A stretch of DNA of 64,000 nt, from the IMG/VR virus record IMGVR_UViG_3300013382_000004. One strand, 5' to 3'. This DNA is from a virus. Lineage: Duplodnaviria > Caudoviricetes. Below, in pieces: positions 30,348 to 46,140 of the stretch (its first letter is position 1; every line of letters begins with the position of its first letter). The notes below the pieces were generated by a model, which worked only from the letters and a program-made list of their open reading frames with translations, was not told the DNA's origin and ran no database searches. The position numbers and the translations under genes are program-made.

Positions 30348-30449
30348 GCATTGTTAAAGCCCAGTATCAACTCTAACAAAAGAGAAAAGATACTGGGCTT
30401 CATAGAGTGCTTAGTAGTACAAATCGCACTCGGAAAGGAGGAAATCACC

Positions 30450-30524
30450 ATGTAGAAAATAATTCCCCTTGACTACATTCTCGGTGTAGTCACAATAATC
30501 ATCTTAAAGAACCACAACTTCTAA
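30450..30524 (+). CDS. Cassette 1 peptide M[TAG]KIIPLDYILGVVTIIILKNHNF
   Basis: GAAAGGAGG RBS; homologous to six other copies. Confidence 0.7.
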
Positions 30525-30585
30525 GTATAAGATGATTAGCCAAAAGAGGAGAGGAGTTACTAGCTTCTCTCCTCAATCTAAAACA

Positions 30586-30614
30586 AGTATAACATATAAA
30601 GTTGTACTTGTCAA
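30586..30614 (-). promoter_or_regulatory. Antisense sigma-A promoter, cassette 1
   Basis: TTGACA-17-TATACT with TG extension. Confidence 0.75.
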
Positions 30615-30642
30615 GTACTTTTTGAAAAGGACAAAAGAAAAA

Positions 30643-30846
30643 ATGAATATTGAGATGCGTAACAAGGTCAACAAACTCATCCACGTAGATGGTTACTACG
30701 CTGTTAAGAGCAATGATATGTATCGCCTTGACAGAGTGAAGGGTAAATTAATTGCTCTTCTAAAGGACTCAAACGAGTTAAAAACCGTTATAAGAGAATT
30801 TGACCGTACAATGTATTATTATTATAATACATTGCATTGCATGTAA
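30643..30846 (+). CDS. Hypothetical protein, paralogue of 30147-30347
   Basis: The paralogue alignment places the start at 30643. Confidence 0.75.
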   Translation: MNIEMRNKVNKLIHVDGYYAVKSNDMYRLDRVKGKLIALLKDSNELKTVIREFDRTMYYYYNTLHCM

Positions 30847-30979
30847 GCATTGTTAAAGCCCATCATCATAATTGATGGTGGGCTTAATAGAGTGCTTAGT
30901 GTGAATAAGCTCTCTGCTTAGTAATAGATGACCTACATAGTCTATAACTAAGTATTAAATTATGAAAGGAGTGATGCAA

Positions 30980-31054
30980 ATGTAGAAAATTACTTTTGTT
31001 GATTACGCTCTCAACGTAGTCAGTATTGTTATTCTCAAGAACCACAACTTCTAA
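30980..31054 (+). CDS. Cassette 2 peptide M[TAG]KITFVDYALNVVSIVILKNHNF
   Basis: GAAAGGAG RBS; homology to the other copies. Confidence 0.7.
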
Positions 31055-31101
31055 GAATAATTGAATATCGAGAGGGTTGTGTAGGCAACTCTCTCACCAT
31101 C

Positions 31102-31130
31102 ATAATAACACATAAATAAATGTTTGTCAA
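31102..31130 (-). promoter_or_regulatory. Antisense sigma-A promoter, cassette 2
   Basis: TTGACA-17-TATTAT. Confidence 0.7.
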
Positions 31131-31164
31131 GGAAAAGACAATAAAACCAGAAAGGAATCGAAGT

Positions 31165-42764: not shown

Positions 42765-42818
42765 TTCTACTCAAATATAAATAACAACACATTTATTGAA
42801 AAGAAAGGAATTTTGATT

Positions 42819-43499
42819 ATGAAGAACGAAACTATGATTTACGCTAAGTATCAGGAAACTTATATGAACGATGAATTCATTGGCTATGAAAGAGCTAAGA
42901 AGTTCATTAATAACTGGGATTCTTGGGAGAAATGCTTCCCTCATGAAGTTCTTGTTTGGCTTGTTCAGAAGAAAATTAAAATGAAGGATGTCTGTGCTAT
43001 TCATTATATGCCTGTGTCCTTTGGCTTAAATAATTATTATGAAGGTCGTTATGAACGTCTTCCTCAAATTAAAAAGCACTTCTCTTTTACCGAAGAAAGA
43101 GGTGGATGGACAAGAGAACACGTTGAGGATGCTTATCAGTATATTATCCCTGCTCGATATCAAAGCGTTCATCTTAGAGACGCTTTTAAGGAAGCTATCT
43201 ATATGGCTTATCCTTATATGGGAAAATATAAGTTCGATGCTTATGTTCCTGATTATAGCACTTCTACTCAAGATATTTACATCACAATGATTTACAAACT
43301 GGATGGTGAGGAAGTCAAAACAAGTCTTTATTGTCCTCTTGAAGCATTGCTTAAGAAAGACCCTGACCTTATTTATAAAAGACATTATGGCTATAATGCT
43401 GATTATTACAGATGCCAACCTGAACGTGCAAAAATTGTCCTTGGTGTTCTCAATAGCCAGAAGTACAAAGCTTTCTGCAAAAAGGTGAAGGAGGGTTAA
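42819..43499 (+). CDS. Hypothetical protein
   Basis: GAAAGGA RBS, about 226 aa. Confidence 0.7.
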   Translation: MKNETMIYAKYQETYMNDEFIGYERAKKFINNWDSWEKCFPHEVLVWLVQKKIKMKDVCAIHYMPVSFGLNNYYEGRYERLPQIKKHFSFTEERGGWTREHVEDAYQYIIPARYQSVHLRDAFKEAIYMAYPYMGKYKFDAYVPDYSTSTQDIYITMIYKLDGEEVKTSLYCPLEALLKKDPDLIYKRHYGYNADYYRCQPERAKIVLGVLNSQKYKAFCKKVKEG

Positions 43500-43570
43500 G
43501 CCCTCCTCCTTTTAATATATAGTCACTACAAACAATAATAAACATTTGAATTAAGAAAGGAAATTTGATT

Positions 43571-45187
43571 ATGTCTAACACTGCTATCGCCAACTTCTAC
43601 AAGTCCACCACTCACGATTATGAGAGCTTCTTCACCAAGTATGAACCTTCTGAAAAGGAAAATGAAATCAATGCTCGTATTAAAGAACTTACTGACAAAC
43701 TTGAAGCAGCTAAAGTTGAAATGACCAAGGTTCAGAACAGTCGCTACAATAAGGATTTCACTTCTCATGGTAAGAAGATTGTTGTTCATTACAGCTCTAA
43801 TCGTTCTGATATTGAATTGTATTTTGACTTGTTTACTGGAACTCCTGTAAACCGTGATTCTCTTGAGCCTCAGACCTTTATCATCAAGGAGGTTAATTTG
43901 AAAGGTGGTGACTTTTGGGTCAATGTTGGTTATTGCTTCTCTCTTGGTGCTGTTGTGTCTCGTCATTATAGATACAAAATTGCTACTAATAATGCTTTTT
44001 GCAATTTTGTTATGAACGGTGAACAGTTGATTCCTATTCTTGAACCTGATGCCACTCCTATTAGCGATGGTGATGTTCCTGCGTTTGAATCTGGTATGGG
44101 GGATGATGCCACTTATTTTATTTCTCAGATTTGGGATATCCCTGTTGAGAATATCGGTCCTAAATATACTTTTAAAAGATTAAGAGAATCTTTGAAGAGA
44201 AATAAATCCACTGAAATTATTTTCCGTACTGCTCCCAAGTCTGTACAGGAATCTTTGCTTATGCGCAAAATTGAAACTGCCGAACCAGTCTACAAGCTTC
44301 TCAATCTTACTAAGGCAGAATTCAAAGAAGCCTGTGATAGAAATATTATTGGCGACTGGACGAACTTACAAACCATCATTAGGTCTGCTTTCAAGCAGGA
44401 TGATAAAAATTACTATTACGGTAGTAACGATGACATGACTCTTGAAGATTTTTGTCATTACACTAATCAGGAATGGTTTGATATCATCGAGAAAGCAAAA
44501 TATTGGGACGAAGAATTTGCTTTTAATCATGTCCAGATGGGCGGCTATGGTAATAATGCATTGGAATTAACCTTTAGCGCATATTTAAGAAACAATACTT
44601 CTTATAGAAATGCAAAATTCTATCATTTCTATACCTTTGGTAAGTTCATGGATTATGTTTGCGAAGAAGCTGTCAATCAGGGCTTTAAAACTTTGAATTC
44701 TTTTATGACTGAGCTTCGTGACTATCTTGATATGTGTACTTCCATGGATATCAAACCCACTCTTTATAGTTCTTATCTTAAGCAGACTCATGATATTACT
44801 TCTCGTAACTATGAAGTCAAACTTACAGAGGAACAGGCTGAGATGTTTGAGAATGCCTATAAAGGCTTCGAAAACTATACTACCAAAGATAAGAAGTACA
44901 GTGTCATTCGTCCTAAAAATGCTGATGATGTTAAGCACGAAGGTTCTGAACTCAATCATTGTTGCTCTTCTTATATCGGAAAGGTGTTGAAAAGAAATTG
45001 CCTTATCATCTTCCTTCGTAAGACGGATAAACTTGACAAGTCTCTTGTTACTATTGAGCTTAATAACAAAGCTATTGTTCAAGCAAGAGGAAATTCTAAC
45101 CGTTCTATTAGTGAAGAGGAATATATTGCTATTTGTGAATACGCCAAGGAAAACAAGCTTAAGGTTAATGTTACTCCTCGTGATTAA
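43571..45187 (+). CDS. PcfJ-like protein (second copy)
   Basis: RDYLDMC..LKQTHD..EGSELNHCCSSY..IFLRK..LVTIE..VQARG..NR. Confidence 0.75.
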   Translation: MSNTAIANFYKSTTHDYESFFTKYEPSEKENEINARIKELTDKLEAAKVEMTKVQNSRYNKDFTSHGKKIVVHYSSNRSDIELYFDLFTGTPVNRDSLEPQTFIIKEVNLKGGDFWVNVGYCFSLGAVVSRHYRYKIATNNAFCNFVMNGEQLIPILEPDATPISDGDVPAFESGMGDDATYFISQIWDIPVENIGPKYTFKRLRESLKRNKSTEIIFRTAPKSVQESLLMRKIETAEPVYKLLNLTKAEFKEACDRNIIGDWTNLQTIIRSAFKQDDKNYYYGSNDDMTLEDFCHYTNQEWFDIIEKAKYWDEEFAFNHVQMGGYGNNALELTFSAYLRNNTSYRNAKFYHFYTFGKFMDYVCEEAVNQGFKTLNSFMTELRDYLDMCTSMDIKPTLYSSYLKQTHDITSRNYEVKLTEEQAEMFENAYKGFENYTTKDKKYSVIRPKNADDVKHEGSELNHCCSSYIGKVLKRNCLIIFLRKTDKLDKSLVTIELNNKAIVQARGNSNRSISEEEYIAICEYAKENKLKVNVTPRD

Positions 45188-45270
45188 CATTTATCTATAA
45201 CAAATCACAAACACAATTAACAACACATTTAAGCTGACCTAACGGCTATACGGGGAGAAAGGTAAACATT

Positions 45271-45846
45271 ATGACGAACACTAAGATTTATAACAACATG
45301 ACTGTTACCGTCACTTGCAGCGAAAGCGAAGATGTTGAAATGATTAATCTTATCAATAAATTCAAAGAAACTCAGAAAACTCATGAGTTTACTGAGAAAT
45401 CCTATGCACCTAAAATCAAAGCAATTGGTGAGGCTAAATGGATTGTTATTGTAAACCAACTTCTTGAGCTTTGCAAAGTTGCTGAAGAACTTGATATCAG
45501 AAACCAGCTTAGTAACTTTATGCGCATTTCCTTTAATAGAGACGATACTGGCGAACTTTATATTCTTCGCCTCGGATGGTATTCGCCCCTTAACCAGTAT
45601 ACCTTAACTTATGGTTATACAGGCTGCATTTACCAAGATGCTACATTGTGGCCTGTAGAGGAATATTGTCCTAAAAGTGAGCTTGAAGATAAGGATGGCT
45701 GGCTTTCTAAATGGGATGAATATGACATTTATAATAAGTTCCGTTCTAAGCTGATGAAAGAAATTCAGCGTCGTACTGAAATTGAAAATGCAAAAACAAA
45801 TGAAATCATTGACCGTTATAACGAGTTCGCAAAAATTGACGAATAA
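45271..45846 (+). CDS. Hypothetical protein
   Basis: GAAAGG RBS, 191 aa. Confidence 0.65.
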   Translation: MTNTKIYNNMTVTVTCSESEDVEMINLINKFKETQKTHEFTEKSYAPKIKAIGEAKWIVIVNQLLELCKVAEELDIRNQLSNFMRISFNRDDTGELYILRLGWYSPLNQYTLTYGYTGCIYQDATLWPVEEYCPKSELEDKDGWLSKWDEYDIYNKFRSKLMKEIQRRTEIENAKTNEIIDRYNEFAKIDE

Positions 45847-45962
45847 ATAAAATAAAAGAGTGGGTAAGTGTACATCTTACTCACTCTTTTTAAAACTCCA
45901 GCCCCGTAAGCTGTTCATATAAATGAAACCCTTGTCTTAAGGAAGAAAGGAGATGAAAAACC

Positions 45963-46043
45963 ATGTAGAAAATTAAATAGATAAACTACAGATTTAATGT
46001 TTATTATTTCGTGATTGTCTTGACAGGCTTCATGGAAGTTTAA
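45963..46043 (+). CDS. Cassette 7 peptide M[TAG]KIK[TAG]INYRFNVYYFVIVLTGFMEV
   Basis: GAAAGGAG RBS; homology to the other copies. Confidence 0.7.
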
Positions 46044-46111
46044 ATATTAATCTAAAATAACAAACAGTACACATAGGGTCAAGAGGTTACGGGTCTCTTA
46101 ACATTATATGT

Positions 46112-46140
46112 ATTGTAACATATAAAAACATTCTTGTCAA
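46112..46140 (-). promoter_or_regulatory. Antisense sigma-A promoter, cassette 7
   Basis: TTGACA-17-TACAAT. Confidence 0.75.

Follow-up and report, generated by a model that had tools for sequence, protein, structure and literature searches.

The question raised by this locus is why a phage should place an amber stop codon directly behind the start codon of several small genes, within a gene block that otherwise avoids TAG. The locus lies in a 64,000-nucleotide stretch of Caudoviricetes DNA (IMG/VR virus record IMGVR_UViG_3300013382_000004), which is called the window here. An earlier note on this DNA had described seven dispersed cassettes, each with a small open reading frame (sORF) for a related hydrophobic peptide, and the description was confirmed. 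The seven sORFs code for 23–26 amino acids, and each has a strong ribosome-binding site (RBS) with GGAG 7–9 nucleotides (nt) before ATG. Codon 2 is TAG in six of the seven and AAG in one (31711); a second TAG occurs in four (33150, 34380, 38419, and 45963). The plus-strand genes around them (26.5–53.9 kb; 29 genes, 6,336 codons) use the standard code and contain no TAG, in frame or as stop codon, beside 153 CAA or CAG codons and 125 out-of-frame TAGs. The order of parts given in the earlier note was also borne out: 5' hairpins, RBS, sORF, 3' hairpin, minus-strand promoter, and next gene.

The answer favoured here, with slightly better than an even chance of being right, is that the cassettes encode late micro-proteins which are gated by amber codons and controlled by antisense RNA. 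Their build would resemble that of type I toxin-antitoxin (TA) loci, with two locks against early expression. The peptide itself appears to be the selected product of each cassette. The first lock is the genetic code, that is, a recoded amber at codon 2 or at another early codon, and it is strongly indicated. The second lock would be an antisense RNA, as judged from its putative promoter and terminator. This two-lock arrangement of genetic code and antisense RNA has not been described before; full-text literature searches found no paper joining recoding with small ORFs and antisense RNA.

Coding capacity and amber codons of the sORFs

The coding capacity of the sORFs was investigated by comparison with relatives. 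The close relatives are IMG/VR contigs of 155–220 kb, several of them complete with terminal repeats. The earlier note had let its case depend on conservation of the frame and of TAG among relatives; frame and length were kept in at least 12 sister phages. Within orthologous groups, variable columns at codon positions 1, 2, and 3 stood at 36:18:66. The ratios of nonsynonymous to synonymous changes, pooled over the most divergent pair of each orthologous group, were 0.21 (pN/pS) and 0.14 (dN/dS) in frame, and the shifted frames gave 0.84 and 0.86. Family members always had 23, 24, or 26 codons, and chance matches to the start motif elsewhere in IMG/VR had 4–65 codons and no common sequence. The start motif (GGAG, 5–12 nt, ATG-NAG-ARAAT) was found three to six times per complete sister genome of ~215 kb, in this block only and on the gene strand; the reversed control gave no match in the complete sister genomes. 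Judged by these patterns, the sORFs are real genes.

The reading of TAG was examined in the same alignments. Ile 4 is spelt ATA, ATT, and ATC, which places the start of translation at or before codon 3, and the sole start with a ribosome site is the ATG directly before TAG. Between orthologues, internal TAGs interchange with CAA, CAG, and CAC (three sites), and codon 2 is CAG once. TAG in the sORFs is thus probably read through as glutamine (Gln), and translation of the peptides is predicted. Elsewhere in the window, reading TAG as Gln joins fragmented minus-strand ORFs into long genes (9.3–26.1 kb; 61–62.5 kb), and of the 216 Gln codons (5,121 codons in all) in the late minus-strand ORFs, 45 are TAG. 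A 953-residue single-subunit RNA polymerase of the YonO type (22357–25218, minus strand; 42% identity to an SPbeta-like Bacillus phage protein) contains in-frame TAG at three residues (52, 661, and 664), and two of these TAGs align with Gln in Bacillus phage BUCT082. Since its gene carries in-frame TAGs, the phage's own polymerase should likewise appear only after the code switch. One sister genome has ~19 tRNAs, one of them with anticodon CUA. This tRNA(CUA) (L020:1582–1656) has its anticodon arm and T arm in common with the tRNA-Tyr(GUA) of the same phage (L017:2163–2247). It is without the long variable arm of tRNA-Tyr(GUA), yet TAG aligns with Gln in the proteins.

The amber gating proposed in the earlier note gained support from four sides: purifying selection in frame through the TAG, its exchange with CAA and CAG, the tRNA(CUA) of the sister phage, and the keeping of an early TAG though its position shifts. 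TAG accounts for 10 of 167 codons in the window sORFs, for 45 of 5,121 in the late genes, and for none of the 6,336 in the neighbouring genes; the density in the sORFs is about sevenfold that of the late genes. Searches of IMG/VR were made in a form that left codon 2 free and demanded only ORF start, ORF length, and antisense promoter. They returned TAG at codon 2 in 35–36 cases, AAG in one, and CAG in one, and the family was found in this phage clade only. Among 103 distinct sORFs from all collections, 86 have TAG at codon 2 and 10 have internal TAG only; the remaining seven have none, and all seven belong to one lineage beginning MKK. G006 (212 kb, from another sample), the most distant of the relatives examined, has TAG at codon 2, 2, 3, 3, or 12, and across relatives the early TAG is kept when moved to codon 3, 12, or 15. 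The shifts in G006 indicate that it is the early amber, rather than the string AUGUAG, that is conserved. Codon 2 showed one synonymous variant across 11 classes, compared with 7–8 at other degenerate codons. All ten TAGs of the window sORFs are followed by A, as are 22 of the 45 late-gene TAGs; a 3' A favours amber suppression. Taken on these comparisons, the amber codon of the sORFs looks selected.

Predicted antisense promoters, hairpins, and a proposed mechanism

Three hairpins frame a cassette: U1, a strong hairpin directly 3' of the upstream gene; U2, a small hairpin 45–60 nt before ATG; and D1, a large hairpin 3' of the stop codon. A minus-strand promoter close to the sigma-70 consensus, TTGACA-N17-TAnnnT with TG at −15/−14, was present in all seven window cassettes and in 54 of 56 distinct copies from relatives, 47–133 nt beyond the sORF stop codon. 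The strict motif (consensus TTGACAA-N13-TGTTAnnAT) occurred 14 times in the window against 0.1 expected. Seven of these lie outside the cassettes and head operons, at 26112 (−), 26152 (+), 26466 (+), 51254 (+), 55307 (−), 57160 (−), and 62555 (−); among them is the back-to-back pair at 26.1 kb, whose divergent promoters head the late and the early block. Because the same motif heads operons, the cassette promoters belong to the ordinary strong class of the phage.

The predicted antisense start coincides with the base of D1. Of 100 copies of U1, 52 have at least five T in the next eight bases on the minus strand, compared with 6 on the plus strand. From this polarity, U1 seems to terminate the antisense RNA rather than the upstream gene. 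The antisense RNA would be ~225–255 nt long (~380 nt in cassette 6) and span the whole mini-gene. A consistent sense promoter for the sORFs was not found, and most copies have no consensus sense promoter of their own; the sORFs are therefore probably transcribed as part of long early transcripts.

Two loci in the distant relative G006 were noted apart from these (L157/L158). At G006:33430–33622 the sORF has decayed to its last codons (...IIYNRN*), with D1 and the antisense promoter kept. At 32048, one antisense promoter with its 5' hairpin stands without a recognisable sORF.

The loops of U2 and D1 are complementary to each other. The U2/D1 pairs are CCUACA/UGUAGG, CCUGUA/UACAGG, CCUAUA/UAUAGG, CCCGUA/UACGGG, CCCACA/UGUGGG, and CCUGCA/UGCAGG, with CCGUG/CACGG in G006. 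Complementarity was counted by a motif-pair test, with random re-pairing of the upstream and downstream halves as control. Exactly complementary loops were found in 110 of 130 distinct copies, with at least seven specificities; random re-pairing gave 21.6 on average and 38 at most. The stems of U2 and D1 differ, and covariation between the two hairpins is in the loops only. Read on the plus strand, G·U against A·C in the stems stood at 54:22 for D1 and 19:8 for U2, and D1 stems show compensatory changes in relatives. The G·U excess and the compensatory changes indicate that both hairpins fit the sense RNA best. Fold energies were split on the strand: they favoured the plus strand for the D1 region and, slightly, the minus strand for the U2 region. 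A single natural variant (L008:6810, CCTACA with TATAGG) is unexplained: here a wobble pair would be possible on the minus strand but not on the plus strand. The loops of U2 and D1 lie outside the Shine-Dalgarno (SD) sequence; in two classes a separate small hairpin pairs CCCCTT with the first AAGGAGG. A pairing of the U2 loop CCUACAU with the start-codon region AUGUAG was considered and set aside as coincidence, since the other specificities cannot pair in this way.

The following mechanism is proposed. Under the host code, a ribosome at the strong RBS would make fMet and then halt at codon 2, and the peptide would first become makeable when a phage tRNA(CUA) reads TAG as Gln. The near-consensus, host-type promoter, convergent just beyond the ORF, would drive an antisense RNA from the base of D1 across the ORF, RBS, and U2 to U1, where it would terminate at the minus-strand T-run. 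By pairing with the sense RNA, the antisense RNA would block the message or lead to its destruction, as happens at type I TA loci. In the sense RNA, the cassette-specific loops of U2 and D1 would kiss and thereby close the mini-gene. Being complementary to D1, the 5' hairpin of the antisense RNA bears the loop of U2 and would compete with U2 for D1. The peptides would be late-acting effectors, maybe harmful if made early, and toxicity is the leading proposal for their role.

Known systems and rival explanations

The peptides are rich in Ile, Val, Tyr, and Phe. Polar residues are kept at position 8 (Asp or Asn) and position 12 (Asn, Gln, or Gly), often with Arg at 17, and the polar C-termini YNRN, KNHNF, and TGFMEV are conserved. 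Uncharged stretches of 13–18 residues occur in classes A, B4b, and C. At a guess, the pattern would suit a two-stranded beta-hairpin. For membrane toxins such peptides are unusual, and the membrane-toxin label of the earlier note is doubtful. No significant match to known type I toxin or antitoxin families was obtained. The type I TA-like idea of the earlier note stands as far as architecture goes (convergent consensus promoter, minus-strand terminator), and architecture is also where its support ends.

Several points weigh against the favoured explanation. Peptides of the 34380 class have a grand average of hydropathy of −0.1 to −0.3 and a longest uncharged stretch of 5 residues, with Arg, Asp, and His within the core. 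For none of the seven peptides did Pfam, PHROG, or NCBIfam yield a family at E values up to 10, and Rfam gave no relevant match at E up to 1 on both strands of 29.8–47 kb. Codon 3 (AAA/AGA) is as constrained as codon 2, so start-proximal conservation may come partly from the initiation context or from a local hairpin that includes AUGUAG. The MKK paralogue lineage (31711) is stably ungated across deep divergence, which means that the amber lock is not essential for every copy. On the antisense side, about half of the U1 copies have no clear T-run, and the activities of promoter and terminator are predictions.

A general definition of type I TA loci is given in PMC11264685. By prediction, the cassettes combine a small ORF of under 60 amino acids with a cis antisense RNA that has its own promoter and overlaps the message. 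The ibs/Sib loci of Escherichia coli are type I loci with a fully overlapping cis-antisense RNA. The cassettes resemble them in being repeated and dispersed in intergenic gaps, in the ORF of about 20 codons with a strong RBS, and in the predicted antisense RNA, which has its own promoter and terminator and spans the whole ORF. Copy-specific recognition sequences and the frequent gain, loss, and decay of copies are further likenesses. We know of no amber lock in ibs/Sib. The cassettes differ from these loci in this lock, in peptides that are not uniformly transmembrane-like, and in two sense-strand hairpins that would kiss. Post-segregational killing in a plasmid prophage was considered and rejected; the amber lock silences the peptide whenever the suppressor is off, which is a poor fit.

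A long-distance interaction similar to that of hok mRNA is present in aapA1/IsoA1 of Helicobacter pylori. In the hok mRNA of hok/sok, the tac/fbi fold-back between 5' and 3' ends governs translation and antisense binding (PMC9841398). The cassettes have a comparable feature in the covarying long-range pairing around the ORF, by which contact between the 5' and 3' flanks would close a small-ORF message. Unlike in hok, this is a kissing contact of 5–7 bp with at least seven interchangeable specificities, not an extended helix, and it does not cover the SD sequence.

In the Bacillus prophage SPbeta, convergent antisense RNAs control small ORFs in bsrG/SR4 and yonT/SR6, and the SPbeta lineage also encodes a YonO-type RNA polymerase. 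Convergent antisense transcription over small ORFs, a YonO-type polymerase, and Firmicute-like host signals are shared with the window. The bsrG and yonT toxins are transmembrane proteins of 38–58 amino acids, encoded in the standard code, with antisense overlap at the 3' end only; here the peptides have 23–26 amino acids, the predicted antisense RNA covers the whole ORF, and TAG is recoded. The bar minigenes of phage lambda are a comparable case, as are bacterial start-stop elements, which have reportedly been described (bioRxiv 10.1101/520783). Read in the host code, six of the seven copies likewise consist of an SD sequence, an ATG, and an immediate stop. The difference is that the stop is conditional here and that a conserved peptide lies behind it.

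The cassettes share the features of recoded late genes: in-frame TAG stands for an amino acid, a suppressor tRNA is encoded (in a sister genome), and the early genes are free of TAG. Borges et al. proposed that recoded stops in lysis and other late genes delay expression until the code switch; they also placed delayed genes within early regions, such as an intron homing endonuclease, and found small transmembrane proteins near lysis cassettes strongly recoded (bioRxiv 10.1101/2021.08.26.457843). Micro-ORFs and antisense RNA are not mentioned in the text of that paper, nor is an amber fixed at codon 2. The present case goes beyond those genes in that the gated genes have only 23–26 codons and would bear a second, RNA-based lock.

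With a recoded codon at or near position 2 in an otherwise TAG-free block, the cassettes are the most concentrated natural example of a proposed recoding timer that was found. To our knowledge, direct tests of stop-codon recoding as a timer of late genes are scarce, and the cassettes offer a compact natural reporter for the timing and efficiency of the code switch. Their products would make up a new micro-protein family under antisense control, carried by large Firmicute gut phages. Should the peptides be toxins or factors of lysis or takeover, the phage would carry a type I TA-like weapon that leaves its early programme unharmed. The kissing loops provide at least seven orthogonal specificities of 5–7 nt, validated by evolution, which may aid RNA design.

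Regulation by the act of translation was the other function considered in the earlier note. As leader-peptide attenuation, it was not supported: D1 is mostly without a plus-strand U-run, the spacer between stop codon and D1 varies by indels (up to ~16 nt among close relatives), the peptide sequence is conserved, and the next gene has its RBS on the far side of the antisense promoter. An arrest-peptide model was rejected on the same grounds, which also count against a code-sensing riboregulator. In the latter, translating the sORF after the switch would remodel the RNA and alter the expression or stability of the flanking early genes; in the early state, the start-stop would leave the RNA bare, and the kissing complex or the antisense duplex would form. 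Such a regulator is thought unlikely. ATG-TAG behind a strong RBS does make a clean start-stop under the host code, the kissing loops bracket the translated segment exactly, and the cassettes lie between the genes of one long early block, mostly without a consensus sense promoter of their own. However, the strong purifying selection on amino acids (dN/dS 0.14, pN/pS 0.21) would be needless for a pure translation sensor. D1 does not mask the next gene's RBS and in most copies is no intrinsic plus-strand terminator, the indels uncouple the ribosome position from the hairpin, and cassettes are lost or decayed while the neighbouring genes stay. Little probability is likewise given to the broader idea that the cassettes sense the genetic code of the cell, with tRNA(CUA) opening the kissing complex, flipping the balance of sense and antisense RNA, and so timing the flanking genes or the release of the peptide. 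If true, it would be a regulatory principle without known precedent.

The conserved polar C-termini, with polar residues at D8 and N12, would suit specific binding better than membrane insertion, and half of the strongest promoters in the window point into the early block. Both facts agree with harmless late micro-proteins or released signal peptides, in which case the minus-strand promoters would not make antitoxins and would act as insulators or a shut-off of the early operon, by transcriptional collision and RNase III processing. This combination is improbable in our view. The promoter accompanies the sORF in 54 of 56 copies and is not found at other intergenic gaps, the cassette-specific loops imply one-to-one RNA recognition, and no receptor-like gene was seen adjoining the cassettes. 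Almost no credence is given to the proposal that the sORFs are untranslated and that the repeat is purely an RNA or DNA element, for example a terminator-promoter module, with its frame present by chance. It would account for the absence of protein family matches and for hairpins and promoter that are better conserved than third codon positions. It is contradicted by the three-base periodicity of substitutions, by a dN/dS that is low in this frame only, by lengths fixed at 23, 24, and 26 codons compared with 4–65 for chance matches, and by the exchange of TAG with CAA and CAG. Late micro-proteins under amber and antisense control remain the favoured explanation.

Coordinates and gene context

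The coordinates of the cassette parts are collected in Table 1.

Table 1. Parts of the sORF cassettes in the window (q, TAG; aa, amino acids).
Feature	Position	Strand	Description
Cassette 1 U1 hairpin	30360–30398	.	3' of upstream gene
Cassette 1 U2 hairpin	30405–30431	+	loop UAGUA, complement of D1 loop UACUA
sORF 1	30450–30524	+	24 aa, MqKIIPLDYILGVVTIIILKNHNF; codon 2 TAG
Cassette 1 D1 hairpin	30546–30574	+	loop UACUA
Antisense promoter 1	30586–30614	−	TTGACA-N17(TG)-TATACT
Cassette 2 U2 hairpin	30917–30952	+	loop CCUACA
sORF 2	30980–31054	+	24 aa; codon 2 TAG
Cassette 2 D1 hairpin	31070–31095	+	loop UGUAGG
Antisense promoter 2	31102–31130	−	TTGACA-N17(TG)-TATTAT
Cassette 3 U2 hairpin	31655–31684	+	loop GCCUACA
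sORF 3	31711–31785	+	24 aa; codon 2 AAG (Lys), AAG in all relatives; sole ungated copy
Cassette 3 D1 hairpin	31811–31836	+	loop UGUAGGC
Antisense promoter 3	31848–31876	−	TTGACA-N17(TG)-TACAAT
Cassette 4 U2 hairpin	33092–33121	+	loop GCCUACA
sORF 4	33150–33221	+	23 aa; TAG codons 2, 12
Cassette 4 D1 hairpin	33238–33269	+	loop UGUAGG
Antisense promoter 4	33273–33301	−	TTGACA-N17(TG)-TAAGAT
Cassette 5 U1 hairpin	34286–34316	−	minus-strand T-run; predicted antisense RNA terminator
Cassette 5 U2 hairpin	34328–34346	+	loop CCUGUAA
sORF 5	34380–34451	+	23 aa; TAG codons 2, 12; codon 12 CAA/CAG in relatives
Cassette 5 D1 hairpin	34484–34528	+	loop UUACAGG
Antisense promoter 5	34529–34557	−	TTGACA-N17(TG)-TATATT
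Eighth cassette, decayed	38226–38347	+	U2-like hairpin, 5'-truncated sORF remnant, D1-like hairpin, loop UAUAGG
Cassette 6 U2 hairpin	38357–38372	+	loop UCCUAUAA
sORF 6	38419–38490	+	23 aa; TAG codons 2, 15
Cassette 6 D1 hairpin	38512–38562	+	loop UAUAGGA; stem with compensatory changes in relatives
Antisense promoter 6	38563–38591	−	TTGACA-N17(TG)-TAATAT
Cassette 7 U1 hairpin	45855–45891	.	two-way terminator: A-run before, T-run after
Cassette 7 U2 hairpin	45899–45913	+	loop CCCGUAA
sORF 7	45963–46043	+	26 aa; TAG codons 2, 6
Cassette 7 D1 hairpin	46064–46113 (core 46081–46099)	+	loop UUACGGG
Antisense promoter 7	46112–46140	−	TTGACA-N17(TG)-TACAAT

The eighth cassette is without RBS and start and is absent in some relatives; it is intact in relatives L007 and L011, where it encodes MqTIKQINYqFNVYYCSIILGRMYEL. 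Relatives of sORF 7 have CAG at codon 2 in one case and CAA, CAC, or AGC at codon 6.

The early plus-strand block has GGAG-type ribosome sites and TTGACA/TATAAT promoters, and these SD and promoter signals suggest a Firmicute-like host. The recognisable neighbours in the cassette block (33347–48296, plus strand) are two PcfJ-like proteins, a DUF932 protein, a ParB-like DUF6551 protein, and an SprT-like protein, a set which we take to resemble the leading-region or anti-restriction genes of conjugative plasmids. A megablast search of 30–39 kb against phage records gave no match.

Three further observations were made in this region. A T-rich tandem array at 29627–29706 (period ~10 nt, unit TGATTTTTTTT) lies in a stretch low in guanine plus cytosine (GC), at the turn of the cumulative GC skew (26–30 kb); it could be an origin or bent DNA. 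A tandem duplication of ~530 bp at 30100–31060, comprising a small gene and a cassette, gave rise to cassettes 1 and 2; the duplicated gene ends are 83% identical, with the common flanks CATTGTTAAAG...ATAGAGTGCTTAG. Two perfect plus-strand promoters, TTGACA-N17-TATAAT, occur at 34585–34613 and 38812–38840. In the promoter at 34585–34613, the RBS of the next gene lies inside the spacer and the −10 box abuts the ATG at 34614, a layout which implies that the gene either has two alternative ways of being expressed or yields a transcript whose start lies within the annotated ORF.

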